Below, in pieces: positions 21,550 through 63,184 of a stretch of 64,000 nt of DNA (positions are counted from its first letter, which is position 1; each line of letters begins with the position of its first letter). The stretch is from IMG/VR virus record IMGVR_UViG_3300021295_000001, one strand, 5' to 3'. The DNA is from a virus. Its lineage: Duplodnaviria; Caudoviricetes. The notes below the pieces were generated by a model that was not told where the DNA came from, searched no databases, and saw nothing but the letters and a program-made list of their open reading frames with translations. The position numbers and the translations under genes are program-made.

Positions 21550-24500
21550 ATGTCCGAAAGCGCAAAGTACTATGATTCTAATGGCAGGCGCCTGACGGAT
21601 GGGCAGGCCAAGTTTTTCTGGGATTCTGCCGTGAGGGACGGCCAAGGAAGGCTGTTGGTGTGCTATCATGGTTCCAACGAATCGTTTTCTGAGTTTGACC
21701 CGTCAAAAGCGTCAGGCGGTTTCTTCGGAAAGGGATTCTATTTCTCGAAAGAAGAGGAATATGCATCTGATTACGGAACATCGGTAGGCGCGTATTACCT
21801 GAACATAGAGAACCCATTCTATTATGATGAGTCGACCATGGAAGACGTCAGGAAAATCCTTGATTTGGAAATCAAAAAGGGAAAAATCGACGGTTACGAC
21901 GAAGAGGAGATGCCACGATTAGAACAAGAATGGTATGACAAAGGGTTGGACCTCATAGACGACGTCTTGGCGGAATTGGCTGGTGGTTACACGGGTGACA
22001 CGTTTTCGGAAGACATCATGCAACTTGGATATGATGGGATACTCGTCGACTACGGAAGGGAGATAATCGTGTTCAGCCCGAACCAGATTAAGCGCGTGGA
22101 CAACACAAACCCGACCGATTCCGATAGATTGGATGAGAAAACAACGCAAAACGTAATCTTTTTCGGCAATCCGACCAAGCGCAATGACATGCGCGCCACC
22201 GAATCATTTGACGAGGCTTACGAGCCGATGAAGACGGGCAAGGCATACAAGGTCTTCCGCGTGAAGAACGGGAAACTATATCCTCCCATGGTGGCCAACG
22301 CTGGCGGAAGGGACACGCCGATTGGGGTGTGGCTCGACGCAGAGGAAGGCGAGTTCGCTGGCCTTTCCAAGACTGGCAGACCCCAAGTCAAGTCGACTGG
22401 CTCTGGCACGCTCTCATACAGGCCTGGGTGGCACCTCGGCGATTTGCCACGCGCCCCTCAGTTCGACAGGACCAACAAGGAGACTGGCGAGAAGGAATTC
22501 CCGAGCGATTTCGTTTGGGCCGAGTGCGACTACGCCATGGACGTCGACTATCAGCCAGAGGCGGACGCCCGTGGGTACGAGAGGACCAAGATGGGCGACG
22601 ACGGCAAGGTCGTGACCTACAAGAGCGACAAATACCAACATTCCCTCGCGGGACTTCCGAAACTCCCAGCCAAGGGTTATTACAGATACAGGACCAACCC
22701 GAACCCCGAAACCGTGCCATGGGTCATAACTGGCTCGATAAGGGTGAACAGGTTGCTTTCCGACGACGAGGTGAACGCCATCCTGAAGGACAACGGAGTG
22801 GCCCCGATACACAGGCAGGGCGGTGACAAGACGCTCGCCGAACTCGGCCTTTCCGAATCCCTGTCCGAGGCATCTGGCTCGGGTCTTGACGAACAGGCGT
22901 CGCGACGCACGCTGACATCGAATGATTTCCTCGGTTGGGTCGAGGCGCTGTCCGACAAAGACGACATATCATATAACTCCCCCGATTCCATCGAATACTC
23001 GGACGTGTTGTTGCTGAGCCCCGAAGGGGACATGATTGACTGCGGGGAATACGACACCCACGAGTCTTTCGTGGACGCCGTGATGGAGACGAATGAGGCC
23101 AAGGAGGCCAAGGCGCGCGTCGTTTGGGACGGGAGAATAACCGATTACCTTTTGGAGAAACTCGGCTACATCACGCTTAACAGTGGCCAAGGATACGGCG
23201 ACGACAGGTTGAAGATAGTCATATGCAGAAAGCCGAGCGCTCAGCAAATCGACATCCTCAAGGAGTGGCTTGGAAACCATTTCGCGGACAACGGTCCCAC
23301 GTTGCATGTTTATACGCCAAACGACCATAAGGAATTCGACCCAACGTATTTCGACAAGGAAGACGTGACGAAAGGCATAATCAAGGCGTTTTCTTCTGGT
23401 AGAGGGGTGTTCACCGAGGCCACTGGCTCGCACCTGAAGGGCGAGTACGACTACGGCGACGTGCATTCGTACCTCGAATCCGAATTCGGGTTTTCGGACG
23501 ACATCCCCGAGGTCATGCCACAACTCATAGACAAAGACGGGCGCTTCTGCTCCATGAGCCCAAAATCCAAGCCGAACGCGCCCATGTTCCATGGGGAGAT
23601 ACTCCAAGCCATGGAGGACGACGGAATCGTGGCCACTGGCGATTCCCTTTTGGACAAGGTGAACCTAACCAACACCGACCTGTTCCAACGGCTCGGGTTC
23701 ATACGTTGCAACCGCGGGAGCGAGGGATACCACTACATGGCGTTGCCAGACGCCCCCACCGCGAACCAGATGAGGGCCCTCAAGAGGTACGTGCTCGATT
23801 CCTATTCCGACAGGCGCGCCCTGATTGAGATAAGCGGTCGTGGCGAATACGTGAACTTCATGGTCAACGACGACACCTATCCGATATGCGGGCACGTGGA
23901 CGACCTCATGAGGATGTTGGTCAGATACGCCAACGGCAGGCCCCTGAGGACGAAAACGGAGGCCAGGTTGTCCGAGGAATGGCTCGACGACGAGCACGGA
24001 ATCTGGATGACCGAGAGCCAATACGAGGTCGCCAACATGATGAGGAACTCCAAACACTCCCTCAGGATACTCTGGGACAGGAACCTCAAACTGTTCTTCG
24101 TGTGCGACGCGGACCTCTACATACACAGGGACATGATTGAGCAGGCCGTGGAGGACGGGCTGTACAACGGCGTCATAAGCCGTTGGGGTATAGACTCGTA
24201 CGTCGACGACTACGGCAGGAACGTGATATACTACATCTTCGCGCCGAAGGGCCTCGAGAAGGAGACCTACGGGGCGGACGTGAACGAGGACGGCTACGAG
24301 GGTAAATACATATACCCATTCGGGACCGTGACCACGCGTAGCGACGACAGGTACAAGTCCTCACCGCTCGCCAAGGCGCTCGGGAAGTACGAGGCCCATT
24401 ACGTGCAGGACGGGTGGGTCGACGATTACACGCCGAAGGTCGTACAGGTAGAGTCGATGCTCACCGAGGTGTATCCGAACGAGGGCGAATCGAAGAAGGA

Positions 24501-25506
24501 CTTCGTGTCCCGCTTCATGTCCGTTACCAAGGACGAATACCCAGACGTAAAACAGCGATACGCCGTGGCTCTTTCCTATTGGGACAGGGCCAAACGCAAA
24601 AACGAGTCGTTGCTCACCGAGAAGAAGCGCGGTGAACTCATAAGCCAGTCCAAGAAGGGCGCGGACTATTCGAAGAACAACCAATCCAAAGGCAGGAACA
24701 GGTGGGAGCGCAGGATGCATTCCCGCGTGGCGAACAGCGTCAGGGACTACGACAGGATAGACATGAACGCGCTTTGGAAGGCCGACATACTGGAGTTCGG
24801 CGTGAAGGTGCACGGCGAGACCGACGACTACGTGGTCACGATAACGTTCGAGAAGATACTCGACAACCTGAGGCAGGAGGTCCGCTCCAACGGCAACAAG
24901 ATGGAGTTCAAATGCGTGCTCAGGGCGCTAATGAGGTCGTTCAACGACGACGACGTCTTCATCAGTTGCTCCTGTCCCGACTGGAAATACAGGTTTTCCT
25001 ACCAAAGCACGATTGGGCGCTACAACAGCGGTCTGCCAGAACTCAGGCCGAGCGACATCACCAACCCCAACAACGACAAGGGCGCTGGGTGCAAGCACTC
25101 GTTGCTCGTCCTGTCCAACACGGACTGGATGGTCAAGATAGCGTCCGTCATAAACAACTACGCGAGGTACTGCCAGAAGAACATGCAGAAGAACTACGCG
25201 GACTACATATTCCCGAAGATTTACGGGATGCCCTACAAGAAGGCCGTGCAACTGTCCCTGTTCGACGACATGGACCCCGATAAGAGCGGTCTGTTGCCGA
25301 GCGACCAGAAGGCCCTGTCCGACGTCATAGAACTCGGCATGAGGGGCAAGGACGAGAAGGGGCGCTTCGAGAAGGGCAACGACTACAGGTTCGCGAAGAC
25401 CAAGCCCGAGGTTGGGACCGACCAAGAGGACGAGAACCCGCTCGAACTCAGATTCGACAACAACAGGCGCAAGACGCTCAGGGGACCAGAGGAGGAAGAA
25501 GGATGA
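21550..25506 (+). CDS. Large multidomain (polyvalent-type) protein: ART-PolyVal-like domain, several unknown modules, C-terminal SWIM-like zinc finger
   Basis: VCYHGS...GKGFYFS...YLNIENP...GYDGI...FSPNQIK; CSCPD...CKH; late motif at 21514. Confidence 0.7.
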   Translation: MSESAKYYDSNGRRLTDGQAKFFWDSAVRDGQGRLLVCYHGSNESFSEFDPSKASGGFFGKGFYFSKEEEYASDYGTSVGAYYLNIENPFYYDESTMEDVRKILDLEIKKGKIDGYDEEEMPRLEQEWYDKGLDLIDDVLAELAGGYTGDTFSEDIMQLGYDGILVDYGREIIVFSPNQIKRVDNTNPTDSDRLDEKTTQNVIFFGNPTKRNDMRATESFDEAYEPMKTGKAYKVFRVKNGKLYPPMVANAGGRDTPIGVWLDAEEGEFAGLSKTGRPQVKSTGSGTLSYRPGWHLGDLPRAPQFDRTNKETGEKEFPSDFVWAECDYAMDVDYQPEADARGYERTKMGDDGKVVTYKSDKYQHSLAGLPKLPAKGYYRYRTNPNPETVPWVITGSIRVNRLLSDDEVNAILKDNGVAPIHRQGGDKTLAELGLSESLSEASGSGLDEQASRRTLTSNDFLGWVEALSDKDDISYNSPDSIEYSDVLLLSPEGDMIDCGEYDTHESFVDAVMETNEAKEAKARVVWDGRITDYLLEKLGYITLNSGQGYGDDRLKIVICRKPSAQQIDILKEWLGNHFADNGPTLHVYTPNDHKEFDPTYFDKEDVTKGIIKAFSSGRGVFTEATGSHLKGEYDYGDVHSYLESEFGFSDDIPEVMPQLIDKDGRFCSMSPKSKPNAPMFHGEILQAMEDDGIVATGDSLLDKVNLTNTDLFQRLGFIRCNRGSEGYHYMALPDAPTANQMRALKRYVLDSYSDRRALIEISGRGEYVNFMVNDDTYPICGHVDDLMRMLVRYANGRPLRTKTEARLSEEWLDDEHGIWMTESQYEVANMMRNSKHSLRILWDRNLKLFFVCDADLYIHRDMIEQAVEDGLYNGVISRWGIDSYVDDYGRNVIYYIFAPKGLEKETYGADVNEDGYEGKYIYPFGTVTTRSDDRYKSSPLAKALGKYEAHYVQDGWVDDYTPKVVQVESMLTEVYPNEGESKKDFVSRFMSVTKDEYPDVKQRYAVALSYWDRAKRKNESLLTEKKRGELISQSKKGADYSKNNQSKGRNRWERRMHSRVANSVRDYDRIDMNALWKADILEFGVKVHGETDDYVVTITFEKILDNLRQEVRSNGNKMEFKCVLRALMRSFNDDDVFISCSCPDWKYRFSYQSTIGRYNSGLPELRPSDITNPNNDKGAGCKHSLLVLSNTDWMVKIASVINNYARYCQKNMQKNYADYIFPKIYGMPYKKAVQLSLFDDMDPDKSGLLPSDQKALSDVIELGMRGKDEKGRFEKGNDYRFAKTKPEVGTDQEDENPLELRFDNNRRKTLRGPEEEEG

Positions 25507-25871: not shown

Positions 25872-25961
25872 TTCGGAACGGCGCCTATAAGGCGCTTTTC
25901 CTTCGCGTTCCGTTACGGCGTATGGGACAGTCCTTTGCTAAATTACACGAGTAAGGGATTT

Positions 25962-26495: not shown

Positions 26496-26503
26496 GGTAA
26501 CGC

Positions 26504-29026: not shown

Positions 29027-29041
29027 AGGAGGGGATGACAC

Positions 29042-29455: not shown

Positions 29456-29528
29456 CCAAAGGCATACGCATAAAGGCAACGTCATGCTTACGTTGCTAAA
29501 ATGATTAGGAGAAGGAGGCATTGAAAAG

Positions 29529-32119: not shown

Positions 32120-32121
32120 CG

Positions 32122-37410: not shown

Positions 37411-37453
37411 CCGAACGGTGCGAAATTATATTGATGGAGAAAGGAAAAAAAGC

Positions 37454-39888: not shown

Positions 39889-41421
39889 ATGACGAACGAG
39901 ACCATAATGGAGACTCTGAAGGTACAGCCCCTTTCCGAGGAGGAAAAGCAGGCCCGCCACATCCTGAAAAGGCTGACTGGGCCCATCGCGTCCTGCAAGG
40001 AAGGCACGAGGAACGGCAGGAAGTACAACCGCGAACTCTGGGAGAAGGCGCTCAACGACGACATCTTCAAGGAGAAGATTGACACGAAGAGCCTGTTCCT
40101 GGAACTCGGCCACCCCGACAGGGACGAGACCGACATGAACTGCGCCTGCGCGTGCATCCCCGAGATGCCCAAGATAATCGACGGCGACCTATACGCGGTG
40201 GTCGACGTACTGGACACCCCAGTCGGAAGGTTGCTAAACACCCTAATCGACTACGGGTTCCAGCCTGGCATCAGTTCCCGTGGCACGGGTGACGTCATAG
40301 AGGGTTACGACGGCGAGTCCGAAGTCGACCCCGAGACGTTCTTCCTGGAAACGTGGGACATAGTCCAGACACCCGCCCTCAAGAAGGCCAGGCTGGCCGT
40401 CACCGAGGGTCTGGAAAAGGAGAAGGCCGACCTCAACGTCGCGTTGAGGGAAAGCCTCAAATCGTCCTCGGAGGAGGACAAGAAGATGATGACGGAGGCG
40501 CTCAGGAACGTGGGCATCGACGTCGTCGAAGAAGAGAAGGTATCAGACGCCGTCGAGGCGGAGGATATAAAGGAAAGCGAATCCGAAGGGTCCGAAAAGG
40601 AAAGCAAGGAAGCCGTGGATGACGGGACCGACGCGTTGATTAAGGGACTCCAGGAGGCGCTCAAGGCCAAAGCGGAATTGGAGGCGACCGTCAAATCGCT
40701 TCGGGAGAGCCTTGCAGTCAGCGATGCTAAGGTGGGCAAACTCGAGGAGGAGAACGGAAGGTGCAAGGGCACAATCGTGCGACTCACCAAACTGTCCGAG
40801 GGTTCCAAGGAATCGGCCAAGAGGATAGCCTCACTAGAGGAGGAACTGAAACGCAAGACCGAGAGCATCAACATGCTCACGAAGGTGACCGCCGAAAGCA
40901 AGGCAAGGATGGACGACGAGAACCGTTCCCTGCGCGAATCCGCGAAACGCGGGTCCGACGAACTCGGGAGACTGAGGAGGGAACTCAAGGAATCCAAAGA
41001 GGCCAACGAGCAGAAGGTACGCTCACTGGAGGAATCGGCGCGCAAGGCTGGCGCCAGGTCCGCGAAGGAAATAGCCGAATTGAAATCACGCCTGGACAAA
41101 TCTTCCAAACTCGCTGAGGGTTACAGGAAGATGGCGAACGACACCATGTCGAGCCTAATCTCGACCAAAGCCGTCCAGTTGGGCGTGTCCGAGAACGACA
41201 TCAGGTCGCGCCTCGGCGAATCCTACACGTTGCAGGACGTGGAGGACGTGTGCGAGTCCCTAAGCGAGTACTCGCTCAACCTCAGCAGGTTGCCTTTCCG
41301 CCTGGACGGGAACGCCACCGTAAGAATCAAGGAATCCAAGATGCCGACCGCCAAGCCGACCCCGTCGTATTACGACGACGACATCGACGAGCACTCGTTG
41401 CGCATCGCGGGCCTCGATTGA
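39889..41421 (+). CDS. Prohead protease (T4 gp21-like) fused to coiled-coil scaffold
   Basis: NGRKY, ELGHP, DTP.G, GISSRGTG, WDIV..P; long E/K-rich coiled-coil C-terminus with many LxE sites. Confidence 0.88.
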   Translation: MTNETIMETLKVQPLSEEEKQARHILKRLTGPIASCKEGTRNGRKYNRELWEKALNDDIFKEKIDTKSLFLELGHPDRDETDMNCACACIPEMPKIIDGDLYAVVDVLDTPVGRLLNTLIDYGFQPGISSRGTGDVIEGYDGESEVDPETFFLETWDIVQTPALKKARLAVTEGLEKEKADLNVALRESLKSSSEEDKKMMTEALRNVGIDVVEEEKVSDAVEAEDIKESESEGSEKESKEAVDDGTDALIKGLQEALKAKAELEATVKSLRESLAVSDAKVGKLEEENGRCKGTIVRLTKLSEGSKESAKRIASLEEELKRKTESINMLTKVTAESKARMDDENRSLRESAKRGSDELGRLRRELKESKEANEQKVRSLEESARKAGARSAKEIAELKSRLDKSSKLAEGYRKMANDTMSSLISTKAVQLGVSENDIRSRLGESYTLQDVEDVCESLSEYSLNLSRLPFRLDGNATVRIKESKMPTAKPTPSYYDDDIDEHSLRIAGLD

Positions 41422-45160: not shown

Positions 45161-45228
45161 ACCACATCGCTTTTCTTTTTGCTAAATTAACTGTATAATA
45201 TCATTGGGACTTATTGGGAGATGAAACC

Positions 45229-49086: not shown

Positions 49087-52000
49087 ATGGTTGACGAAAA
49101 GGATTTTTTGGCGTTCACGGAAGACGACGTAGTCGATTACGCCGAGGTTTATGATTTGGATGAGGGGTTCGGCAAAGGCCCTTCTATTTTGATGCCCGAC
49201 GGAACCGTGTACGACCTGTCCCGCGCGTTCGAAACGCATTTCGGCTTCTTCGAGGTCGTGTTCCAGGGATTGCACGATTCCATATTGGACGAATACCCTG
49301 GCGACACTGACGTCGAGTACGAAGGCTATCTGTCCTACGACCAAGAGAAGATAATGTACCGCGCCGAGGCCGAATTGGGAATCATCACCCTGAACGTCGG
49401 CCTCACGTACAAGGAGCCGAGGGCCAAGGTCGTAATCCTCAGCAAACCGACGGAAGCGCAATACGGCGCGCTCACCGATTTCCTCGATTACGTTCAGCAA
49501 AAAGGCAAGAAGTCCGTCCTTTTCTTCATGGGCGACAAAATAGATTACGTCGAGTACCAGTTCGGAGAGGACCAAGGCACCGACGAAATCATCGACAAGG
49601 TCAGGAGGTATTTCGCCACTGGCAAGATAGTCGAGGCTCAATCGGCCGACGGCATGGCGTACGACGACGTCATCAAGGCCATCGAGGGGTCTGGCTTGTT
49701 CCCGATAACCGCGGACGCGGACGAGACTGGCTTCATCCTCCCAGACGGCAGGTTCCTGAACACGGCCGACAACGAATACGGGATGCCTTGGCACATGGCG
49801 GTCGAGGATTTCCTCGGCGACAAGGGATTGGCGAACGAGAAAGCCCGCGAAAGGTCCTCCGAAAACGACTCTGGCGACGGCTCCCCCACAATCGAGGCGT
49901 TCGGCGCCATAAGGGTAAGCGACGGCGAGGAATACATATGCCTACCGCCAGTGAGGCCGACCGAGCAGGCGTTCTCCGCCCTCGAGGGATGGTTGGCGAA
50001 GATGCACGACGAGCATAGCCTGCAGAGGGTGTACGCGTGCAATTACGAAGGCAATCAGGACGCGTTCTACGACATCGTCCCTGGTGAAGAGAAGGAAATA
50101 GTCGGCAAATTGCGCAGATATTACTCTTCGAACAGATTGATTGAATCCCCCAAAACCCTTAATTTGACAGAATATTTCGAAGAAGAGGACGGCCCGTGTT
50201 TCGTGACGAACGAGGCAAAGGAATTGGCTGATTATCTTAAACGCAAGATAAACGAAGGTCACGGTTCTTACAGGATAGTGCATTTCTACGACCAAGACGT
50301 ATACGCTGTAGCGTCTAGTTACTCCATGGTGCACTACTGGCTTGATTACAACACCAGAAAACAGATGTACGTCGACGGCAACGAGTTCGGCGCTAGGTTA
50401 ATGGCCTATCCGATAGGGGCCAGCGACGACGACAACGTGGACTATTATGACTGCGAGAACAAGGTGTATGAATTCGGCGATTGTGGCATAAAGGTGGCCG
50501 TGATAGGCGACTTCCCCGAGGATTTCGAGAAGACAACGCTATGCAAAGCACTGGGTCCGATAACTAGAAAATACGAATTCGAGAAGGACGACAGCGACAA
50601 ATACGAGAGTATGCGCCTTCCTCACGCAACAGACTTGGGCAAGCCCAAGGAATCGCATGACAAGCAAAACGAACTGACCGAGGCCAAGGATGACGAACTT
50701 AAATTCAAGGATTGGTTGGACTCCGCATACGAAGCCGTCGGATATCAGTGGAGCGACCCGATGTTGGACATTTCCTATGAAATGAGGAGCGCCGATTCTT
50801 GCTTTGATGAGTTCCAAGATTACAGGCGCAGAAACAAAGGCAGGCAAACCGATTACTATTATTGGATGGGTCAAGAACCGAGTATGTTCTTCTCCTTTCT
50901 GGCAAGAAGCATAAGAAAAAAATCGAGCAAAGCCAATGTGAAAAAGGAAGCGGAGGCTGGGGCCGAGTCCGTATACGACGGGAAATTTTGGCGTGTGTAC
51001 AAAATAAACACGTACGAGGCGTCGTGCCATTATGGCAAAGGCACCACGTGGTGCATATCGGAATACGATGACGATTATTGGGACGAATATGCTGAAAAAG
51101 GCATCACATTTTATTTCCTTCTCCCTAAAGACGGGAAAAAATACATGAAGTATGCCATAGGAATCGACCGCAACGGGCATGTTCAGATGATATTCGACCA
51201 AGAGGATTGCAATGTTGAAGGAGTGCCGAACGTACCAGACATACCCGAATTGAGAGAAGTTAGAGATGCCATGGGCTTGGATTTCCATGTGTATTTCAAC
51301 ATGGACGAAGAATTCAGCACATATGACAACTTCAGGGACGCATGGTACGCTGGCGTGAACTGGCCCGAGATGCTATGGTTCCTTTCCGAGGACGAGGAAG
51401 AAATAAAGCGCATAATGCATGACGACCTACGTATGGACGATGTGGAGGTTGTCGAATCCCTAACCGAGGCCAAAGCGGACGTCGATAAGTTCAAGGCTTG
51501 GCTCGCCGACGGGATAAGGGGAAGCAATTTCTCCGAGCCTAATGCCGATGAGGTGGCCAAAGGGTACGCCGATTTCTTCGTGGCAAACAAAAACAGACTC
51601 AAATCCCCGCAGAACGATTTCTATTATTGGATGAAGAAACCGTTCGGGGAATTCGTGTCCTTCATAAGCGACCTCAAGAGAAAGGACGACGAAAAGTCAT
51701 TGTCCAAGTCAAAGGAGGACGAAGGCTCAAAACTCGTGTACGAGGATGAGGATTGGTTTGTGTACGAGATAACCAATTACGAGGCCTCGAAGAAATATGG
51801 CGCCAATACAAAATGGTGCATTTCTGGCTCCAAGCGATGGAACAACGGGGAGAACGGAAGGAAGTTTTTCGACGAATACGCCAGCAAAGGCATCAGGTTT
51901 TTCTTCTTCATCGACAGGAAGGGTGGCAGGAAGTACGCGTTCACCGCTTATCCAGAGGCGTTGGGGGACGACGCCTACGAGATTTACAATGACATGGACG

Positions 52001-54414
52001 TTAGGGTTCCGTTCATCCCTAACGCCCCAGCCGTCGACGAATTGTTGGCCATGTACGGCAAAGACAACGCTTTCTACGGTTCCGTGCAGGACGTGAGGCT
52101 GGAACTGAAATTGGCCCTTGCGGAAGGCAATTACAGCCCAAGCACCCTAAAATGGATTGTCGACGATTATCAATTGAATTACGGAGGAGAGGAAGAGTTC
52201 CTCATCGCCACCGACAAATACCAATTGGTAAACGAATTGGATTGGCTTATACCCGATGAGTATTTGGAGTGGGAGCGTTCCTATGAAGAGGCTGAGGCTT
52301 CCCACAAAGACGACGGCGATGACTCAAATTCCTACTCGGCGTACTGGGACGGCGATTTCTGTCAGATAAGCAACTGGGACGAAATCCCTGGTTGGAGAAA
52401 CGGAAAGGAATACGTAACGGACCCCGCGCATTGGAAGGACGGCATGTACCTATTGTCCCCAACTGGGTACGATGGATTGGAACTTACGATTGAGCCCACG
52501 GACGTCAAGGACGCGGTCATGGTGATATCGTCGTATTACGGACCTGATTTTTTGGCCGACGTTTCACTTGACCTGATGGATGCCGTGAGAAGCGGGGAGT
52601 ATGACGCCAAAAAAGTTGCCGAGGACCTAGGAATGTCCAAGGAAGCGACGGATGCGCTCATAAAATACTCAAAAGAAAAGCACGAGGGTTTGGAACTCAC
52701 CGAAGCAAAGGCGGACCAAGACGCCTTCGTCGACAAATTCGGTCAGGACCTTTTCGACCTGTTCCAGAAATCCAAGGACAGGCTAAAGAACGCCAAGGTC
52801 TCAACCGACATGACTTGGCACGTTAAGAACACGGACCCCAAGGACATGAGGCAGATGCTATACAACCTACGCTCCAAGTCTGTGAAGACTGACGGGGAAG
52901 GCAAGGCGGACCTCACCAAGATACCAGGGAAATACAAATACCTTGGCTCAAAGGGCGGTTATGACGTATACGAGCCTTTGGACGTGGATGCATCCATGGC
53001 GCTCGGCGTGGGCTCTGGTTGGTGCACCACTGGAAGGTACGGGCACGCTGGGGACCTCAATTTCAAACCGTCGCGCGAAGACGCCGAGGAGCATTGGGAC
53101 GAGTATGAGGAAAAGGGGATAAGTTTATTCTACTTCCTGCGAGACGGCGTGGCGAAATACGCGATTGCACTTCACCCAATTACGTATGAAATAAACCAAT
53201 GGATAGGGAAAGATTATCTTCGCAAAACCAACGTCGAGGTATTCAATCAGAATGACGAACAAGATTATGATGCCCTGAAATACCTGCCTTTGGACATCCT
53301 CGACGACGACATCGTTTTCGATGTGGACGAGCACGAGGATGGCTTGGCTTTGTCCGAGGATGGAAGGACCGTGCTACAGGCTAACGAAAACGTCGTCTCC
53401 GTGACCATCCCCGAGGGCGTCACCTCCATCGACGACTATGCCTTCTCTCATTGCTCCTATCTGACATCGGTAGTCATCCCTTCTTCCGTCGCATCTATTG
53501 GTGAGTCGGCATTCCTAGGTTGCTCATCCCTCGCCTCGATTGTCATTCCCTCATCCGTCACTTCCATCGGCGAAGAAGCCTTCGCGGACTGTTCATCTCT
53601 CATCTTGATTACCATCCCCTCATCGGTAACCTCCATCGGGGATTACGCCTTCGAAGGATGCCTCTCCCTTAAATCTGTGACCATCGGAAACAGGTCTTGC
53701 GAAATAGGGGAAAGTGCATTCCCCCAAAAAACGAAGATAATATACGCTGAAACAGAGTCGCTAAAGGAATCTCACGAAACGGTGTGCTACGTCCTTCCCG
53801 ACGGAAGCACCATGCACGGAACCGACCATTTCCTAATGGATTTGGAAATCGGCGACGTGGACGACGAAATGCAAAGCGAGACCGCCAAGTCGTTCGTGAG
53901 GGTGAGGCTCAATTCGTACATCAACTCCCTCACGTTCCCATCGCATGGAATCACCGACGCGCAGGAGGCCAAGGTGAGGGAACTCCTCAATGGGGCGGAC
54001 TTGGAAGGTAAGACAATAGAGGCAAACACATACGATGGCAAATGGTATCCGAGGATGAAGGCCACTGACGAAGTGGCCGACCAAGTCCTGAACTCATACA
54101 AGAGGCATCTGCTAGGCATAAGCGAATCCAGTCGGTCGGTTGACACAGCCAACCAAGGTGGTATAATAGTGTTACGCGAGGGAAACCACATGCAACACAC
54201 CAAAAGGGAATTACGCAAGATGATAGACTGCCTCAATGAGGCGGAACTCAACGAGAGGATTGACGAACTCAAGGCCAAGGTCCTGAGGATGGTCGAATCC
54301 GACAATTCGGACTATTCCGACGACGCGTTCATGCTCAATTACGCTAGGATGGTCCGCGCCAGGGACTACAGGCCCGAAACGCTAAAGGACGGGAGTTGGA
54401 TGTATGGAGAATGA
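49087..54414 (+). CDS. Giant modular protein (1775 aa): three PDG...H modules, three YG..T.WCI-type modules, BspA-type leucine-rich repeats
   Basis: Internal repeats visible by eye; IPSSVTSIG..AF..C.SL LRRs at about 53400-53720; late motif at 49071. Confidence 0.75.
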   Translation: MVDEKDFLAFTEDDVVDYAEVYDLDEGFGKGPSILMPDGTVYDLSRAFETHFGFFEVVFQGLHDSILDEYPGDTDVEYEGYLSYDQEKIMYRAEAELGIITLNVGLTYKEPRAKVVILSKPTEAQYGALTDFLDYVQQKGKKSVLFFMGDKIDYVEYQFGEDQGTDEIIDKVRRYFATGKIVEAQSADGMAYDDVIKAIEGSGLFPITADADETGFILPDGRFLNTADNEYGMPWHMAVEDFLGDKGLANEKARERSSENDSGDGSPTIEAFGAIRVSDGEEYICLPPVRPTEQAFSALEGWLAKMHDEHSLQRVYACNYEGNQDAFYDIVPGEEKEIVGKLRRYYSSNRLIESPKTLNLTEYFEEEDGPCFVTNEAKELADYLKRKINEGHGSYRIVHFYDQDVYAVASSYSMVHYWLDYNTRKQMYVDGNEFGARLMAYPIGASDDDNVDYYDCENKVYEFGDCGIKVAVIGDFPEDFEKTTLCKALGPITRKYEFEKDDSDKYESMRLPHATDLGKPKESHDKQNELTEAKDDELKFKDWLDSAYEAVGYQWSDPMLDISYEMRSADSCFDEFQDYRRRNKGRQTDYYYWMGQEPSMFFSFLARSIRKKSSKANVKKEAEAGAESVYDGKFWRVYKINTYEASCHYGKGTTWCISEYDDDYWDEYAEKGITFYFLLPKDGKKYMKYAIGIDRNGHVQMIFDQEDCNVEGVPNVPDIPELREVRDAMGLDFHVYFNMDEEFSTYDNFRDAWYAGVNWPEMLWFLSEDEEEIKRIMHDDLRMDDVEVVESLTEAKADVDKFKAWLADGIRGSNFSEPNADEVAKGYADFFVANKNRLKSPQNDFYYWMKKPFGEFVSFISDLKRKDDEKSLSKSKEDEGSKLVYEDEDWFVYEITNYEASKKYGANTKWCISGSKRWNNGENGRKFFDEYASKGIRFFFFIDRKGGRKYAFTAYPEALGDDAYEIYNDMDVRVPFIPNAPAVDELLAMYGKDNAFYGSVQDVRLELKLALAEGNYSPSTLKWIVDDYQLNYGGEEEFLIATDKYQLVNELDWLIPDEYLEWERSYEEAEASHKDDGDDSNSYSAYWDGDFCQISNWDEIPGWRNGKEYVTDPAHWKDGMYLLSPTGYDGLELTIEPTDVKDAVMVISSYYGPDFLADVSLDLMDAVRSGEYDAKKVAEDLGMSKEATDALIKYSKEKHEGLELTEAKADQDAFVDKFGQDLFDLFQKSKDRLKNAKVSTDMTWHVKNTDPKDMRQMLYNLRSKSVKTDGEGKADLTKIPGKYKYLGSKGGYDVYEPLDVDASMALGVGSGWCTTGRYGHAGDLNFKPSREDAEEHWDEYEEKGISLFYFLRDGVAKYAIALHPITYEINQWIGKDYLRKTNVEVFNQNDEQDYDALKYLPLDILDDDIVFDVDEHEDGLALSEDGRTVLQANENVVSVTIPEGVTSIDDYAFSHCSYLTSVVIPSSVASIGESAFLGCSSLASIVIPSSVTSIGEEAFADCSSLILITIPSSVTSIGDYAFEGCLSLKSVTIGNRSCEIGESAFPQKTKIIYAETESLKESHETVCYVLPDGSTMHGTDHFLMDLEIGDVDDEMQSETAKSFVRVRLNSYINSLTFPSHGITDAQEAKVRELLNGADLEGKTIEANTYDGKWYPRMKATDEVADQVLNSYKRHLLGISESSRSVDTANQGGIIVLREGNHMQHTKRELRKMIDCLNEAELNERIDELKAKVLRMVESDNSDYSDDAFMLNYARMVRARDYRPETLKDGSWMYGE
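54140..54167 (+). promoter_or_regulatory. Intragenic consensus sigma70 promoter
   Basis: TTGACA-16-TATAAT with extended TG, then GAGGG RBS and in-frame ATG 54190. Confidence 0.8.
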
Positions 54415-56407
54415 GATGAATAACCCCTTCCCGAAGGAATGGCAATTGTGGAAGATAGTCGTGCCCAACGAGCATAAGGACGACCCAGAGGACCCGAAGC
54501 GCAGGCCAGTCATACTGACCGAGACGTGGGTCGACGAAGGGGAGGACGACGAGAACCTCGACGAATACTACCCCAGTTTCGCCGTCGGGACCACGCAGGT
54601 CGAGCGCTACCAATACGAGCCAGACACGTTCGTTTTCGACGCCCCCGAGCAGTTGGAGGCGTACAAACTTTCCAAACCCACCATATTCAGATTCGGGAAG
54701 TCCGAGGGAAAATTCACCGAGGACCTCACTCTCAAGGATTTCATCGAGAAGGGTGAATACGTCGCCGACATCACGCCAGAGGACAAGGCCCGCATAAAGA
54801 GGTCCCTTAACAACAAGGTGGGACGCTCCACCCTTTTGCACGACGGGCTCCTGAAGGAATCCGCCGTCACCGACGATTCCATCGACTACCTTAGGGATTG
54901 GTTGCAATTGGGCAAGGAACCCCACATGAAGGGATTCGACGCCGACGCCAAGAAGGCGTTCATCGTGTTCCCGACAGGGGTGGACGTCGAGGACCTAAAG
55001 TCCAAAAGCGGAATCGGAACTTGGCTCGACGAGCACGGTTTCGATTGGAAGGCCGAGAAGACCGACTACACCTACAAAACGGTCGGGTCCTTCAACACGA
55101 GGACCATGAGCAAATCTGGCGCTGGTCGCGACAGGACGCTCAAGGACAGGGTCAGGCTCGACGTATCTTGGGGCGACGACGGCCTCAACGAGGACATCGA
55201 GGTCCACGACGAACTCAATCCGAAACTCTTCGACGGGGACGAACTCAAACCAGAGGTCAAGGAAGCCGTCAGGAACATCGCCGACGCGTTCATGGAAGGG
55301 TTGGCCGAGGATGGCATAAAGTTCAACCTCAAGGACATCGTCCTCATCGGCTCCAACGTGAACTACAACTACAACAAGGACAGCGATTTGGACATCCACC
55401 TAATCGCCGATTCGTCTGGATTGGAATGCCCAGACGAACTGTACCCGCTCCTATATTCCGCCTACCGTAGCATCTTCAACAAGAACTACGAGATAACCAT
55501 CAAGGGAATCCCCGCCGAGATTTACGTGGAGATGGACGAACCGCAGGGAAGGTCCAACGGCGTATACTCAATCAACGACGGTTGGGTCAAGAAGCCCGAG
55601 CGCAGGGAAATCCCCGAAATAGACATGGAGGCATTCGAAAAACTCTTCTCCGAGTGGGAGGACAGGTACTTCGAGGTCAAGAAGGAGGCCGAGGAGGAAC
55701 TCGCTTCGCGCGAGCATCCGCTCGACGAGTCCTTGATAACCGAGGGAACAACGTCGGCCGACGTCTACGACTTCGTGGAGGACGTATACGACCTGCGTAA
55801 GGAATCCATCGCCAAGGACGGCGAGTTCGGATTGGGCAACCTCGTTTTCAAGCAGATGCGCGCCCTCGGTTACCTCGACGAACTGAAGGAACTTATAAGG
55901 CAACTTAAGTCGAAGGAACTGTCGCTAGAGAACCTAAGCGAATCGGCCGAGGGGAAATCCGAAGTCGAGGAACTGTTCTGGAACATCAGGGACGAGGACG
56001 ACAAGGTAGCGGTCGCAATCCTCGACAAGCACAACGGGAAGAACATAATGTACGACGCGAAGAAGGACAAGATAGTGCCCGTTCCCAAATCCAAAACCAA
56101 GAACCGCTTCGCCGTCACAAGGGAGCAACTGAGGGACGGCGTGTTGGCCTCAGAGGAGGAGATGCGCTCGTTCATGAAGGAAGTCGGAGGCGACGAAATC
56201 GTGTTCTACGCCGACAGGGACAACCTTTGGGGCGGTGAGTACAGCGTCATAACCAAAGACGAGGAAAAGGCCCGCAAAGCCTGCGCGAAATACAATCAGG
56301 ACGGATACGCCGTCTTCAATTCGAAGGGCGATTACGAGATGTCCCGCGACAGAAACGGCGAGAGAATCAGGGAGAAACCAGTTGACAAAGCCTCCGAACC
56401 CGAGTAA
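54404..56407 (+). CDS. Modular protein: PemK/MazF-like N-terminal domain plus Pol-beta-type nucleotidyltransferase
   Basis: K.RPVIL...GTT...L.KPT..R; IGSNVNYN...SDLDIH (GS...DxD) and EIYVE. Confidence 0.65.
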   Translation: MENEMNNPFPKEWQLWKIVVPNEHKDDPEDPKRRPVILTETWVDEGEDDENLDEYYPSFAVGTTQVERYQYEPDTFVFDAPEQLEAYKLSKPTIFRFGKSEGKFTEDLTLKDFIEKGEYVADITPEDKARIKRSLNNKVGRSTLLHDGLLKESAVTDDSIDYLRDWLQLGKEPHMKGFDADAKKAFIVFPTGVDVEDLKSKSGIGTWLDEHGFDWKAEKTDYTYKTVGSFNTRTMSKSGAGRDRTLKDRVRLDVSWGDDGLNEDIEVHDELNPKLFDGDELKPEVKEAVRNIADAFMEGLAEDGIKFNLKDIVLIGSNVNYNYNKDSDLDIHLIADSSGLECPDELYPLLYSAYRSIFNKNYEITIKGIPAEIYVEMDEPQGRSNGVYSINDGWVKKPERREIPEIDMEAFEKLFSEWEDRYFEVKKEAEEELASREHPLDESLITEGTTSADVYDFVEDVYDLRKESIAKDGEFGLGNLVFKQMRALGYLDELKELIRQLKSKELSLENLSESAEGKSEVEELFWNIRDEDDKVAVAILDKHNGKNIMYDAKKDKIVPVPKSKTKNRFAVTREQLRDGVLASEEEMRSFMKEVGGDEIVFYADRDNLWGGEYSVITKDEEKARKACAKYNQDGYAVFNSKGDYEMSRDRNGERIREKPVDKASEPE

Positions 56408-56433
56408 TATATAAGGGCATGGAGGAAAAACCA

Positions 56434-56748: not shown

Positions 56749-56794
56749 TTCACGAAACCGCAAAAACGCGCGAATCGTAATGCTAAATTATAAG

Positions 56795-58000
56795 CCCCGC
56801 CCAAAAGGCGTGAAAACGGCGCCCCGCACCCAGTGTTCGGGAACGCAGTATAATAAGGGTGTCCGACGCGGATTCGTCCGCCTCGGGTCCGATTCGGATT
56901 CGTCCGATTCGGGACTGACGATGACCCAACGTCGTTAACCAGGGTCGTGACGGCGGAACCCCATCAACGGGGTCCGCACGTCGAACTGAGCGGTGCATCG
57001 CTCGAAGCGGGTCGGCCCGCGAACAAACTTGCACACCCCATCGGGAGGGTCGACTCCTTCCGTATGAACGCGGGGATATGACGGGACCCCGTAGGCGCGG
57101 TCAAAACCGCGGTTCCCAGACGGCTTCGTCTGGGAGGGGAAGGAAAACCCCGAAAACCAAAGCGCCGAGCGATAACCACGTTAGAGCCGTGGGCTCTCCG
57201 CATCCAGATACGGTACGGGGAGCGCTGGTTGTAGCGCGTCTCGGCACTCACGACCGCCACGTCGTTAAACTGCCAACGGTGGCTTCGGGTTCGATTCCCG
57301 AACCGTCCTGATAGACAATATCTGGGCGGTGAAGTATGGGCAGGTTGCCACAGTCCACCGTTAAACGTCTTGGAGGCGAGACGTTAAATCCCTTCCCGAG
57401 CAGCAAGGCACTCGTTAAAAGAGTCTTTCAGTACAGCGTGGGCAGGAGTTAGTCCCGTTCCTTATAACCGTGGAACGCACGAAAGAGGTCGCCAACATCG
57501 GCGACCGCAAGTAATGGTCGGCAATGATTCGCCGATGGGCAAAACACCCTTAATGTGCCCTCACCCTTTAACGGAACATGGATAGGCTCGGGAGGACCCG
57601 CGCGGGGCCATTGAAGGACCTTCTGGTTGAAAGGCGGACGGACCGCGCAATTAAGGTGGGTTTTCGGGAGAATAGGAACCAGCGAGAACATCCCGACGTC
57701 CTAATGTGTCAGACCAACGCGGTGCACCGCTAACCTGACCGCATTGGGACGTTAAACATCCTAACGCGACGCCCAGCAATGGGCTATGCCAAGGGACCGC
57801 ATCGCGGTGGGTATGGCCACGACGCACCGACGGACCCCGTATTCGGGGACCGACTCGGCAGTCATAATGTGTGGCCCTTGGCCCACCCAATGGCGCACGC
57901 GGTTCGGCGAGTCGCGATTCTGGGAAACGTGCGCCACAACGGTTGCTCCCCCGTGGCAGTCAACCGACAGACGGGTCCACAAAAACCCTTCGAAGGTAAG
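56795..58000 (+). ncRNA. Candidate large structured non-coding RNA (about 1.2 kb)
   Basis: No credible ORF; dense hairpins, tandem pseudoknots and a T-arm; flanked by late motif 56781 and terminator 57998-58024. Confidence 0.65.
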
Positions 58001-58024
58001 CGCCCAAAAGGCGCTTTTCCTTTT
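57998..58024 (+). terminator. Rho-independent terminator
   Basis: AAGCGCC-caaaa-GGCGCTT TTCCTTTT. Confidence 0.8.
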
Positions 58025-58070
58025 GTTTGGTGCTAAATTCACTGATATTGCCCTAGGGTTATTGTTCAGC

Positions 58071-58781: not shown

Positions 58782-58820
58782 CGCGATATAATAATAAATA
58801 ATAATAAAAGGAGTCGCAAA

Positions 58821-61466
58821 ATGGCCGAAAAAAGCAGACTGGAGATGTTAGCCTCCAAACTAAACAGGAAACGCGAGGAACTAAACCGCGCTGGTTTTCA
58901 CGTCGAAGGGACAAGCGACATGGACGTCACGTCGAATTTCAACGACGTGATGCCGTTCGTGGCGGTTTACGAGAGCACGGTGATGTCGGAGTTCCCAGAA
59001 CTCGGCTCCATCGACGAGGCCCTATGCGGACACGACCTCTTCACCGAAATGACCGAGAACGGCCTTGATGACAAGACCGCGATAGAATTCATCACGGAGA
59101 CGATTGGGAAGGCGCTTGGGTCGGACGAAGACGACGAAGAACACGTTGGCGAATCCTCGCTGACGGAGGGTGCTTCCAACTTCCACGGGGACGGTGGCGC
59201 CGAATGGTTGCCTTTATTGGTCTTCATGTCTGACGAAGAGGTATGGGACAAAATCAAATACTATGCCGAGCAGGAATACGTCGGCCACGAGGATGAGCAG
59301 GATTGGGACGAGTTCCTCCAGGAATTCGCCGACGAGCACTACGACGAATACTCGCAAGGCGTCTGCGTCTTGGACGACGACGAGATTAAGGCCCTCGAGG
59401 AGAAGATTGACGAGTTCAACTACGAAATTCACAGGCAAGGCGAGTCCATCACTGGTACCGAGGAATACGACGACGGCGACATACTGAAGAACTCCGAGAC
59501 CGAGATTAAGGGCGGTTATTACGAGGGCTATCAGATTTTCACCGAGTTCCAGTACAAGGACGACGAGAACCTATCCGAGGAACTCAGGAAGCCGTTCCAG
59601 GATTTCTACGCGGAAATCAAAAAGGAATTCGGTTTGACCGAACTTTCCGTCGCCTACAAGGCGTCCAACGGGGAGACTGGCTACAGAATCGTCGAGGAGG
59701 CCCGCGACGAAGCCAAGCGCAACCACAGACTCGGAGAATGCGACAAAGTCAAGGAATCCGTGAGTTGGTCCTATTTCGACAAATTCGACCCCATATTCGA
59801 CCAATACCTTCCCGATTACGGGGAGGGCGACGACATGGCCACCCAAGCGGTGACCGCCGTGTGCAAACTCGTTTACAAGTGGTACAACGACGGCGACGTT
59901 TTCGACAACGTCATGCAGAGGTCCATCGTCGGGTTCGGCAACGACCTGGCGTCATACGCGAACTGGCTTTACCACAACGTCCCCGAGACCAGGAAAATCC
60001 TCACGGGAATCAAAAAGGTTAGGAAGGACGGGGATTACGAGGACCTACTCCAAAAATTGGCCGACGCCGTTTTGGACGCCGAAAAACTCGATGGCCTCAG
60101 CCAAAGGAAAAAGGAAGGCTCCGTGTACGAAGGCGACTTCCCGTTCTCATACGAGTTCCGTAGCGAAAGCGAATACGACGAATCTCTTCACGAAGACGAT
60201 GACGAAATCGAGGAAGACGATGAACCTTGGGTTGGATATAAGATTTCCACACCAGATTTTCCAGATTCGGAAGATGTGTATTTCGACGATTTAGAAGAAG
60301 CGAAAAAGGCATTTGATAAACTCATCGACGAAGGAACAAAGCAAGTAAGACTGTATGCAGTTCAGGAGGCGGAATTTTCATATGGCGAGGACATCGAGGA
60401 ATTGTTGTTCTCTTATGACGACGATGACGAAGACGAATCCATCAAGGAGTCCAGTAAGGACTACTACGAATACCCCGCTGGCTCTGGTTGCCACGTAAGG
60501 GAGACCGAATCCAAATTCGTCGCCATAGGCAAAAACGGGGAGACAATCGGCGAATCCGACACCAAGGCTGGAGCCGAGGCCCTAATCGACGCCCAATGCA
60601 AGGAATGCGTTAATGAGGACACCGTGAAGCAGGGTGGCCACTGGGTCAACAAAGGCAAGGAAGGCACCCACGGAAAGTTCAGGACCAAGAAGCAGGCCGA
60701 CGCCCAGCGCAAGGCCATGTTCGCCAACGGATACAAGGAATCCACTGACCTTGGGGAAGGTGTTAAATACCACGATTTCTTGGACGATAAGGAAAAGATG
60801 AGGGATTTCAAAAAACTATCAAAGAGTGATTTCCTTAAATCGTATTCCTATCTGACGGAACTTGAATACGACCTTACCGCTAAAGCGCTTAAAGACAAAA
60901 ATAAAGCCAACGAATCCGCCGACTTGGGAGAATCCAAGAATAGCGATAACCCGTATCTTAAGAACACCCGCATCAAACTCGGCAAAGGCGAGCACGTCAA
61001 CAAAAACGCTGGCGACCCAGTCAAGAACATGCAGGCCTTCAACCACGCCATGGGCGAAGGAATCGACGCCGAAGCCGAACCAGAAGGCGAGTGCGACCAC
61101 GATTGCGAGGCTTCCATGCTCTCCAACGAGTTCAGCAAAAACGTCAAGGACGAATGGGACGCCATCGAGGGATACAACATCCTCAAAACGGAGATAGAGG
61201 CGTCGAGCCTCACCGACGAGGAGAAGGCCAAACTGGTCGCCATCGTCGACGACATCCGCGGTGAGGAATACAGGCACGTTGGCCAATTGGAGACCGCCGT
61301 CAAGACGGTCGCCCCGCAGGCCGACGACATAGAGAAGGGCAAGGAGGAGGCCGACGGGCAGGAAGCGTCCGCCGAGCATCACGAAGAGCCCGAGGAACAC
61401 GCTGAGGAAATCGCCTCCGAAGAGGAGGAGACCATCGTGGAGCCCAAGGAGGGAGAAGGCGAATAG
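58821..61466 (+). CDS. Highly acidic modular protein with C-terminal ferritin-like helix pair
   Basis: Many ES..E linkers; DEWDAIEGY...IRGEEYRHVGQL. Confidence 0.65.
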   Translation: MAEKSRLEMLASKLNRKREELNRAGFHVEGTSDMDVTSNFNDVMPFVAVYESTVMSEFPELGSIDEALCGHDLFTEMTENGLDDKTAIEFITETIGKALGSDEDDEEHVGESSLTEGASNFHGDGGAEWLPLLVFMSDEEVWDKIKYYAEQEYVGHEDEQDWDEFLQEFADEHYDEYSQGVCVLDDDEIKALEEKIDEFNYEIHRQGESITGTEEYDDGDILKNSETEIKGGYYEGYQIFTEFQYKDDENLSEELRKPFQDFYAEIKKEFGLTELSVAYKASNGETGYRIVEEARDEAKRNHRLGECDKVKESVSWSYFDKFDPIFDQYLPDYGEGDDMATQAVTAVCKLVYKWYNDGDVFDNVMQRSIVGFGNDLASYANWLYHNVPETRKILTGIKKVRKDGDYEDLLQKLADAVLDAEKLDGLSQRKKEGSVYEGDFPFSYEFRSESEYDESLHEDDDEIEEDDEPWVGYKISTPDFPDSEDVYFDDLEEAKKAFDKLIDEGTKQVRLYAVQEAEFSYGEDIEELLFSYDDDDEDESIKESSKDYYEYPAGSGCHVRETESKFVAIGKNGETIGESDTKAGAEALIDAQCKECVNEDTVKQGGHWVNKGKEGTHGKFRTKKQADAQRKAMFANGYKESTDLGEGVKYHDFLDDKEKMRDFKKLSKSDFLKSYSYLTELEYDLTAKALKDKNKANESADLGESKNSDNPYLKNTRIKLGKGEHVNKNAGDPVKNMQAFNHAMGEGIDAEAEPEGECDHDCEASMLSNEFSKNVKDEWDAIEGYNILKTEIEASSLTDEEKAKLVAIVDDIRGEEYRHVGQLETAVKTVAPQADDIEKGKEEADGQEASAEHHEEPEEHAEEIASEEEETIVEPKEGEGE

Positions 61467-61504
61467 CCTTCCTTTCCGCTTATAACCAAGGAGGAACGAC
61501 ATCA

Positions 61505-63184
61505 ATGTTCGGAATCAAATACGCGTTCATGCCACTCGTTCAATACGAGGACGAAGAGGAGGCCTACATAAGGTCTTTGCGCGAGGCCAAGGAAACCACG
61601 TTCGACATATCCGAGGATGGAATGTTCGACAGGGGCAACGCCTATTTCTACGCGAGGACTGGTAGCAAGGTCGATTTGGACGGCAAGGAATACACCGTCA
61701 CGACCGACGAGGAAGGCAACCACAGGATTGGCTATTCCGACACGATATACCTTAAGGACGCCGACGGCAACGTAACGACCGTGTCCAAGGCCGAGTTCAT
61801 CGAGAAGGCCACGCTCCTGAAAGAGGAGGCCAAGCCCGAGGAATACGGCGTTTGGCAGAACGTCGAGGCATCGAAGTACAAGAGCGGTGACCTCGCCGTT
61901 GGCTTCGTCGCCAAAGGCATGTCCAAGGAGGAAGCCGAGGCCAAAGCCAAGGAACTCTCCGACAAATACTGCAAATTCGGCGCTTGCACCTACGAGGTCA
62001 GGAAGGTCGACGAGTCGTTGGCCGAATCAGCCATCGTCGAGGAGCCCATCAAGTTGCTCGAACCCAAGTTCGATTCCAGGAAATCCTTCTACAAGAAAGC
62101 CAAGGTCGACGAAAGGGAAGACGGCACGAAGATACTTTGGTCGTACAACACCCCAGTCTGCAAGATAAAGGACGGGAAGGCCACGTTGCTCAAGAGGGGT
62201 TACCTCGGATGGTTCTCCTCCCCCACCACGCTCCGCCACGTGAAGGACTTCCTCCAGCAGAACGGATTCAAGATAGGTTCGAAATCGGAACTCGCCAAGA
62301 TGTACGAAACCGAACGCTACGACGAGTCGCTAATCACCGAGGCGGACGCCATGAAGGCCAACCTAGACGACGAGAAGGAGGTCGGGGAAGCCAAGGAAAT
62401 CCTGACCAAGGAACACGACGAGGAAGTGGAGCAGATAGTGGACGTCGACGCCAACACCGTCGCGGAACTCAAGGACTCCTACGTCGGTAACGTCATATTG
62501 CAATGCCCCGTGTGCAGGACGTTGCTCTACAAGAAGCCAGACGCCATCGAGAAAGCCGAGGATTCCGACATATACAACGTCGGCGAGGCCTGCCTGCATT
62601 GCGGTAGCGAGGACGGATACGGCTTGGTTGGCCAGGTCGCCGAACTGTCCGTGAAACCAGAAGTGGAGGACGACTCCACCACTGGCAAGGAAACAGATTC
62701 CCCCGACGTCGAGCCCGACAAGGAGGGCACCGAGTCCGAGGACGAGGTAGGCGTTGAGGTCGAGGAGACCGAGAAGGTCGGGGAACCCGTGGTAGAGGAA
62801 TCGCTCGCCAAGCCCGCAGAGGCCGACGAATTCGACGACGCGTCGTTCAACGCGCTGGTCACCGATTTCCTTACCGAGACTTACAACAACGTCACGGGAT
62901 TCACCGCCAACGAGGTGACGAAGGAAGGCTCGGACATAACCGTGTCTGGCTCAATCGCCTACGCGAGCGGTAAGGAACGCTCGACCGAGTTCAAACTGAA
63001 GGAGTCCGTCGAAGGCGGTTCAATCTCCTGGGAGGGTTCGAACCCGACGTTCGCTGGCGGTTCGTTCAGATTCGACGTCGTCAGCGAGGGGAACGTGGCG
63101 AAGGCCAAGGCCCTGTCCTACGAGATTGAGGCCAAGTCCGTCAACGAGTCCTACAAGGTCAAGGGGCGCATATCCCGCGCCTAA
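61505..63184 (+). CDS. Acidic modular protein with zinc ribbon
   Basis: SFY.KA.V...SYNT.V...S.TT.RH module; CPVC...CLHC; ESL.E linkers. Confidence 0.65.
   Translation: MFGIKYAFMPLVQYEDEEEAYIRSLREAKETTFDISEDGMFDRGNAYFYARTGSKVDLDGKEYTVTTDEEGNHRIGYSDTIYLKDADGNVTTVSKAEFIEKATLLKEEAKPEEYGVWQNVEASKYKSGDLAVGFVAKGMSKEEAEAKAKELSDKYCKFGACTYEVRKVDESLAESAIVEEPIKLLEPKFDSRKSFYKKAKVDEREDGTKILWSYNTPVCKIKDGKATLLKRGYLGWFSSPTTLRHVKDFLQQNGFKIGSKSELAKMYETERYDESLITEADAMKANLDDEKEVGEAKEILTKEHDEEVEQIVDVDANTVAELKDSYVGNVILQCPVCRTLLYKKPDAIEKAEDSDIYNVGEACLHCGSEDGYGLVGQVAELSVKPEVEDDSTTGKETDSPDVEPDKEGTESEDEVGVEVEETEKVGEPVVEESLAKPAEADEFDDASFNALVTDFLTETYNNVTGFTANEVTKEGSDITVSGSIAYASGKERSTEFKLKESVEGGSISWEGSNPTFAGGSFRFDVVSEGNVAKAKALSYEIEAKSVNESYKVKGRISRA

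Follow-up and report, generated by a model that had tools for sequence, protein, structure and literature searches.

In phage T4, the prohead protease gp21 cuts after L/I-x-E, shortening gp23 by 65 residues and Alt by 7, and takes off the 10-residue capsid-targeting leader of the internal proteins; the capsid-targeting leaders cut by gp21 range from 7 to 65 residues (PMC9026906). In SPN3US, cuts at A-x-E take off N-terminal propeptides, and an analogy of polyvalent proteins to viral polyproteins was drawn by Iyer et al. (2017; PMC5512222). Here, a stretch of 64,000 nucleotides (IMG/VR record IMGVR_UViG_3300021295_000001; in the following, the window) was analyzed, which derives from an uncultured giant phage with a T4-type head. 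Judging from their sequences, five of its open reading frames (ORFs), named after their first nucleotide (21550, 49087, 54404, 58821, and 61505), are probably head-packaged polyproteins processed by a protease of the S77/gp21 family encoded in the same window. An earlier note on this DNA had proposed that such polyproteins are packaged in the prohead and cut at LxE linkers into tens of small effectors for injection.

The gp21-like protease to which that note had pointed is ORF 39889 (39889..41421, +), which encodes a head maturation protease of the S77 (gp21) family joined to a coiled C-terminal half that resembles a scaffold. It matches PF03420 with 47.6 bits, above the Pfam cut-off of 27, as well as phrog_207 (E=2e-34), and it aligns with the T4 gp21 structure 5JBL over residues 38-198 (E=1e-5), with the segments LGHPDR and PGISSRG placed opposite the corresponding segments of gp21. 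We take these two segments to contain the catalytic His and Ser. The last 340 residues of the ORF product are coiled and very rich in L-x-E/[SAG], where the slash marks the predicted cut, and the protease homologues in all relatives checked are equally dense in sites (8-13 versus about 3.5 expected). As no separate scaffold gene is located upstream of the capsid gene, ORF 39889 is regarded as a protease-scaffold fusion. Exon 1 of the capsid gene (41471) encodes the sites QLTE/A and SLTE/A, which account for the two LTEA motifs noted earlier in the capsid N-terminus, and in addition LFRE/S; VAE/A and W[LMI]TE/[AS] are kept in the capsid N-termini of 8 relatives, about 17 and about 50 residues in. 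From its family, from the conserved capsid sites and from its site-dense scaffold half, we infer that ORF 39889 would cut after hydrophobic-x-Glu.

The frequency of such sites was compared with expected counts from composition-preserving shuffles (n=400). The five ORFs together contain 52 copies of [LIVM]-x-E-[AGS] versus 21.5 expected, a 2.4-fold excess (z 6.9) that was reached by 0 of 400 shuffles, whereas control motifs in the same ORFs stayed near expectation, with 24 versus 21.5 for the reversed motif, 23 versus 21.8 for a shift by one residue, and 82 versus 84.6 for LxE followed by other residues. The protease-scaffold ORF contains 15 matches versus 3.5 expected, and the rest of the window (13.5 thousand residues) contains 38 versus 42.4. 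The excess, for which a comparison with other proteins had been suggested in the earlier note, is therefore confined to the five ORFs and the protease-scaffold, and when the ORFs of the window are ranked by Poisson statistics, the top four are the protease, 58821, 49087, and 61505. The extended motif ES-[LIM]-x(1-2)-E was found 11 times window-wide versus 2.8 expected, and all 11 copies lie inside the five ORFs or the protease. All motif strings quoted in the earlier note are present in the translations where it had placed them. It was also observed that ES[LIM] outside the cargo and protease ORFs occurs once versus 9.2 expected and that [LIVM]xE[AGS] outside the twelve most enriched ORFs occurs 25 times versus 40.8 expected; this depletion in non-cargo ORFs may reflect avoidance of protease sites.

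The apparent domain boundaries, previously thought to fall on such motifs, were then defined by homology, and the edges of modules obtained in this way indeed coincide with the sites. For three modules unrelated to one another, free-standing homologues begin at the junction or else have a leader of 6-25 residues that ends there with L-x-E, and PHROG profiles of free-standing length (194, 247, and 93 positions) cover modules end to end. The NTase-like module of polyprotein 3 (ORF 54404; 54404..56407, +; 667 residues, overlapping the end of ORF 49087, motifs LKES, LNED, ESLITEG, and LSES) comprises residues 264-513 and is bracketed by GLNE/D and NLSE/S. It matches phrog_36119 (E=6e-32) and displays a GS...DLD motif, with Pfam support for an NTase remaining below threshold. 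Its 3546 homologues, in proteins of 243-1894 residues that carry the module at any position, match the query from about residue 258 to about 514, and of 140 homologues, 138 show hydrophobic-x-E immediately before the module; in 128 of these, the module is embedded in a larger protein. In 22 homologues this site reads ES-[LIVM]-x-E, and across 149 proteins with the module, ES[LIM]xE was counted 101 times versus 11.9 expected. One such protein, of 1894 residues, is encoded 6 kb upstream of the gp13 gene in another T4-like contig.

Polyprotein 2 (ORF 49087; 49087..54414, +; 1775 residues) contains 11 copies of [LIV]xE[AS] versus 3.8 expected, with the motifs IVEA, LTEY, ELTEAK (twice), ESLTEAK, ESLKES, and ISES, and is organized in the order PDG, PDG, an uncharacterized module, WC1, WC2 with a tail, WC3 with an LRR_5 domain (E=1e-34), a PDG-like module, and a C-terminal piece. 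The three WC modules (50683..53769, +) are paralogous (z 13-24) and, as had been described for them, start at [ES]LTE/AK.D, at residues 533, 795, and 1207. Free-standing WC homologues have 165-423 residues, and six of seven possess a leader of about 8-33 residues that ends with L-x-E in the same alignment column, the leader ends in homologues P0001-P0006 reading LSE/AKAD, LLQE/GKQD, FLE/SKAD, LLQE/AKQD, and YILE/GKRD; in these homologues the WC domain is followed by LRR or ankyrin repeats. A model of the WC module (predicted local distance difference test, pLDDT, 85) gave no match to the PDB with Foldseek, and a GNAT-like fold was rejected, as the VIA-align Z of 5.7 is within noise, which leaves the fold unassigned.

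Polyprotein 4 (ORF 58821; 58821..61466, +), located between a gp13-like neck gene and the gene of the 61505 family, has 881 residues with 15% Glu, 10 copies of [LIV]xE[AS] versus 2.6 expected and the motifs ESSLTEG, VKES, ESLHED, and ESIKES; relatives do not have this ORF at the corresponding position. Directly after VKE/S begins its YKWYNDGD module (residues 313-458; 59757..60194, +), which belongs to a family with at least 1053 short homologues of about 150 residues. Of 120 members, 92 begin exactly at the first residue of the module in the window and 9 possess T4-like leaders, for example MKIIKE/SVS, MKFLKE/SVS, and MKILTE/NVD, and one leaderless member is found among small genes of another T4-like phage. 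As L-x-E is present only when something precedes the module, it is not part of the YKWYNDGD fold. In the predicted helical structure (pLDDT 82), for which no match was found in the PDB, residues 1-130 are folded and ESLHE/D lies in a disordered tail. The family (P0008-P0127), which is unannotated and common in T4-like metagenomic phages, is characterized by an invariant KWYNDGD core and by an acidic tail whose last residue is Trp.

Polyprotein 5 (ORF 61505; 61505..63184, +; 559 residues, motifs LREA, ESLAES, and ESLITEA) contains 9 copies of [LIV]xE[AS] versus 2.0 expected and consists of a 27-residue leader (LRE/A), an uncharacterized module, a phrog_4264 module, a spacer, and an acidic Zn-ribbon core. 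This conserved core (62390..63184, +; QCPxC...CxHCG plus a C-terminal domain) was matched in 5 of 5 relatives, where the family is represented by an acidic Zn-ribbon protein encoded after the gp13-like gene. Three close relatives of 61505 share a common backbone, contain different modules between E/SLNxS...ENLTLNE/ cassettes and rejoin at LTE/EVDKDL. In the family members L024, L025, and L013, the linker cassette (E/SLNxSE...SENLTLNE/) is about 35 residues long, occurs up to four times per protein and flanks swappable modules.

Polyprotein 1 (ORF 21550; 21550..25506, +; about 1318 residues) is composed of an ART-PolyVal module, a phrog_30118-like module (E=2e-33), two PDG modules, an uncharacterized module, a 51-residue piece, and a conserved SWIM-like core, with junctions at LSE/SLSE/A, VFTE/A, LSE/E, ESMLTE/V, and ESLLTE/K. 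The ADP-ribosyltransferase module (21550..22224, +) matches PF18760 (E=8e-24, residues 35-194) and carries the motifs YHGS, GFYFS, and EIIVF. The two PDG modules (22870..23976, +), ending at VFTE/A and LSE/E, are paralogous to each other (z 7.3) and to residues 1-183 of ORF 49087 (z 15), and each of the five PDG modules, two in 21550 and three in 49087, ends at hydrophobic-x-E/[AS]; no homologues of similar length were found for this module, and an Atlas search gave no lead (score 0.75). The SWIM-like core (24622..25506, +) matches the SWIM family of Pfam below the cut-off, and its homologue in phage SP-15 is SP15_038. In 5 of 5 relatives, only residues ~1020-1300 of the ORF are matched, as a separate gene of about 300 residues, which adjoins the terminase gene in G002, the one relative checked for position, and the leader of the G002 homologue ends with KLDE/A, aligned to ESLLTE/K of the window. 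Since the relatives hold the core alone, the 1029 upstream residues are considered to have been added onto the leader of a conserved protein. Together with the modules swapped at cassettes in the 61505 family, this bears out the suggestion made earlier that relatives might gain or lose modules at the linkers. Sequence searches with the SWIM-like and 61505 cores against the PDB yielded nothing usable.

Several observations weigh against head-packaged polyproteins. The SWIM-like and 61505 cores are encoded beside neck genes in SP-15 and relatives and the SWIM-like core weakly matches a 'tail protein' PHROG (E=1.4e-3); these cores may not be internal head proteins and are perhaps neck-proximal. 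No clear targeting leader was seen at the N-termini of 49087, 54404, and 58821. For the short motif, ORF 21550 considered separately shows no enrichment (2 versus 1.9 expected), and the P1' residues at its joints are unusual (K, V, E); it does contain three of the extended ES-[LIM]-x(1-2)-E motifs. Several matches lie within folded repeats (LRR IGE/S), and the three matches in 49087 that belong to the LRR repeat consensus are probably not sites. Crude hydropathy and disorder propensity around the 52 sites were the same as at control L-x-E positions. In the related genomes G001 and G002, leaving aside the protease, enrichment is much weaker, and the very large polyproteins are therefore lineage-specific. 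Finally, as L-x-E-D before the NTase-like module is near-invariant and includes the Asp that follows, it could be part of the fold.

The alternative that survives best, although we consider it unlikely, is that the ORFs are uncleaved polyvalent proteins acting at full length, packaged or unpackaged, with the L-x-E joints being leader fossils, helix caps or linker features. ART-PolyVal counts among the signature domains of polyvalent proteins, of which some are delivered without processing (PMC5512222), the near-invariant site before the NTase-like module could be structural, and a local disorder signal is absent from the sites. Polyvalent proteins combine several unrelated conflict-type domains with a signature domain, a combination found only in ORF 21550, where ART-PolyVal is accompanied by five or more additional modules; a signature domain is missing from the four remaining ORFs. 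An embedded peptidase (MPTase or assemblin-like), which many but not all polyvalent proteins possess, was looked for, and no peptidase family was matched when the five ORFs or segments of them were scanned with Pfam. Fossil sites would be expected to decay, yet at the twelve ES-L-x-E joints in the window the peptide is kept while Glu, Ser, and Leu codons are mixed and silent-site conservation is absent. As the linker codons are free at silent positions, selection acts at the peptide level, in keeping with a protease site rather than a recombination word. The excess of the motif over flat controls, the recurrence of ES-L-x-E before unrelated modules in the 149 proteins from many contigs, and the scaffold of the protease itself, filled with the same motif, likewise argue against full-length action.

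Somewhat more doubtful still is the idea that a scaffold or core is formed by the acidic ORFs, above all 58821 and 61505, perhaps together with parts of the other ORFs; the sites would then serve their degradation and exit from the head ahead of DNA entry, and they would not be delivered as cargo. T4 core proteins are cut into many pieces that are mostly expelled (PMC9026906), 58821 and 61505 have 14-15% Glu, their tails weakly resemble the scaffold-like half of ORF 39889 (E=4e-4 to 1e-2), and the 61505 family is present in all relatives as a very acidic protein adjoining head and neck genes. However, small proteins that are free in other phages, such as those related to the phrog_4264 and YKWYNDGD modules, are unexpected in a scaffold, and the ART, NTase-like, and LRR modules would be left uncovered. 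It is very improbable that the linker functions chiefly at the DNA level, as a recombination junction where cassettes are exchanged, and resembles a protease site incidentally: modules of relatives are exchanged exactly at the linker cassettes, but the varied codons of the 12 ES-L-x-E linkers provide no shared DNA word. That the motifs are a by-product of Glu-rich composition, which the earlier note had named as grounds for refutation and for which the 12-15% Glu of three of the five ORFs might speak, can be dismissed given the shuffles and the reversed, shifted, and other-P1' controls at expectation.

Returning to polyproteins processed in the head, it appears rather likely, from the sequence evidence, that the head protease cleaves the joints, and the following course of events may be envisaged. 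Small phage proteins that are independent elsewhere would have been fused in series as head cargo; among the free-standing homologues of the modules, those without a leader are presumably produced inside the cell, whereas others have a short T4-style leader. Each joint would retain hydrophobic-x-Glu, often in the longer form Glu-Ser-Leu-x(1-2)-Glu with Ala, Ser or Gly as the next residue. The polyproteins probably enter the prohead core, and in two of them a conserved C-terminal core domain may serve as an anchor. The gp21-family serine protease, fused to its site-rich scaffold, would cut after the Glu residues, and it would also trim the capsid N-terminus and dismantle its own scaffold. The freed pieces, among them the ADP-ribosyltransferase, the NTase-like enzyme, and the LRR-bearing WC modules, would remain inside the head and accompany the DNA into the cell. 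All of this, from packaging through cleavage and retention to injection, is predicted, as are the effector roles. The specific motif excess, the module edges on sites, the leaders of homologues, and the module turnover thus speak in favor of the core of the earlier proposal, whereas its 'tens of effectors' goes too far, as only the ART-PolyVal, NTase-like, and LRR_5 domains have effector-like identities. A broader claim, to which we would give even chances, is that a linker code (Glu-Ser-Leu-x-Glu, cut after the last Glu) is widespread and allows T4-type phages of uncultured hosts to turn any small phage protein into head-delivered cargo, by inserting it into a polyprotein that the prohead protease would take apart; families normally made in the cell may be convertible in this way, and modules gained, lost, and duplicated at the joints may constitute an expandable payload.

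A further link between the cargo ORFs and the head genes is provided by the promoter-like motif TGCTAAATT, of which 13 copies were found between 19098 and 58031, all on the plus strand, versus 0.26 expected. Copies are located upstream of polyprotein 1 (21514..21522, +), the terminase gene (34916), the protease gene (39828), and polyprotein 2 (49071). The motif is probably a late promoter element, and because it is common to both groups, the cargo ORFs are probably expressed with the head genes.

With regard to the setting, the window encodes a terminase (34954) and a gp20-like portal (37418-39292) that is about 30% identical to the portals of Streptococcus phage GXN1, Bacillus phages SP-15 and HSE3, and Listeria phage LIS04. 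A near-DNA search of an isolated-phage collection gave no match to the window. Relatives in IMG/VR amount to 26 loci, including the complete or near-complete G001 (201 kb) and G002 (233 kb), and a related-locus search with ORF 61505 as query found nothing. Several of the matches in G001, G003, G004, G005, and G006 (loci L030, L037, L050, and L052-L054) contain in-frame TGA codons, for which alignment overrun, recoding, and broken genes are conceivable causes. The major capsid gene is composed of exon 1 (41471..41770, +), which encodes the N-terminal delta region and was located by tblastn with the capsid protein of a relative, and exon 2 (43018..44082, +; tblastn 42% identity, E=7e-80; phrog_138). 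The exons, with ends near 41770 and 43018, are split by a group I intron (41764-43017; Rfam RF00028, 83 bits, 41764-42036), inside which lies an endonuclease-like ORF (42138-42992), and the capsid gene of SP-15 is likewise split. Two more endonuclease-type genes, each with its own TGCTAAATT, directly follow the capsid gene (44198-46821). One of these, ORF 45214, is an HNH homing endonuclease (phrog_3339, E=2e-54), and the other, ORF 44198, was considered as cargo and discarded, as its several [LIVM]SE[GST] matches, which were left uncounted, look by eye like NUMOD3-type repeats of a homing endonuclease. A region of about 1.3 kb (56781-58070) flanked by two TGCTAAATT motifs has no convincing ORF, and the gp13-like gene probably starts with the ATG at 58071 (236 residues, as in relatives) rather than at 57786.

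Provided that the predicted cuts take place, a single late gene would supply many finished proteins at DNA entry, before phage gene expression, when host defences act, and such an arrangement would account for numerous giant ORFs that lack annotation in metagenomic phages. The junction motif offers a simple sequence rule to predict packaged proteins and their mature ends and could guide protein-delivery designs in T4-like vectors. The YKWYNDGD family and the NTase-like module are candidate early host-takeover or anti-defence factors.

Protease-scaffold fusions or nested genes are represented by P2 gpO and lambda C/Nu3, and this likeness concerns ORF 39889 only, with its protease and coiled scaffold-like half, and not the cargo ORFs. 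The internal proteins IPI-III and Alt of T4 (PMC9026906) share with the system predicted here the S77 protease, the hydrophobic-x-Glu rule, an ADP-ribosyltransferase among the cargo, and, in the homologues of the modules, leaders ending in the site. In T4, however, each cargo has its own gene and a single N-terminal leader (Alt being also trimmed C-terminally), whereas up to about 8 modules per ORF are joined here by internal sites, the motif is extended to ES-L-x-E, and the ADP-ribosyltransferase belongs to the PolyVal and not to the Alt family. Phages phiKZ, 201phi2-1, and SPN3US (gp175/gp245; PMC10052503, PMC5694885) are similar in having large heads, many packaged proteins, a diverged gp21-like protease cutting after Glu, and long propeptides cut at several sites. 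They differ in the motif, which is A/S/G-x-E, and in that cuts in the cargo remove N-terminal propeptides and the protease loses a C-terminal one, separation of a chain of functional modules not having been reported. With polyvalent proteins (Iyer et al., 2017; PMC5512222), the likeness consists of many unrelated conflict-type domains per polypeptide, ART-PolyVal, and predicted delivery with the DNA; release was proposed there to occur by embedded peptidases (a zincin-like MPTase or a C-terminal assemblin-like domain), whereas the joints here carry the site of a separately encoded prohead protease. Full-text searches of the literature gave no description of module chains joined by prohead-protease sites. 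The architecture joins the themes of T4 capsid targeting with gp21 processing and of polyvalent proteins in a new variation, and, if the predicted processing is true, it would form a mechanistic bridge between the two.

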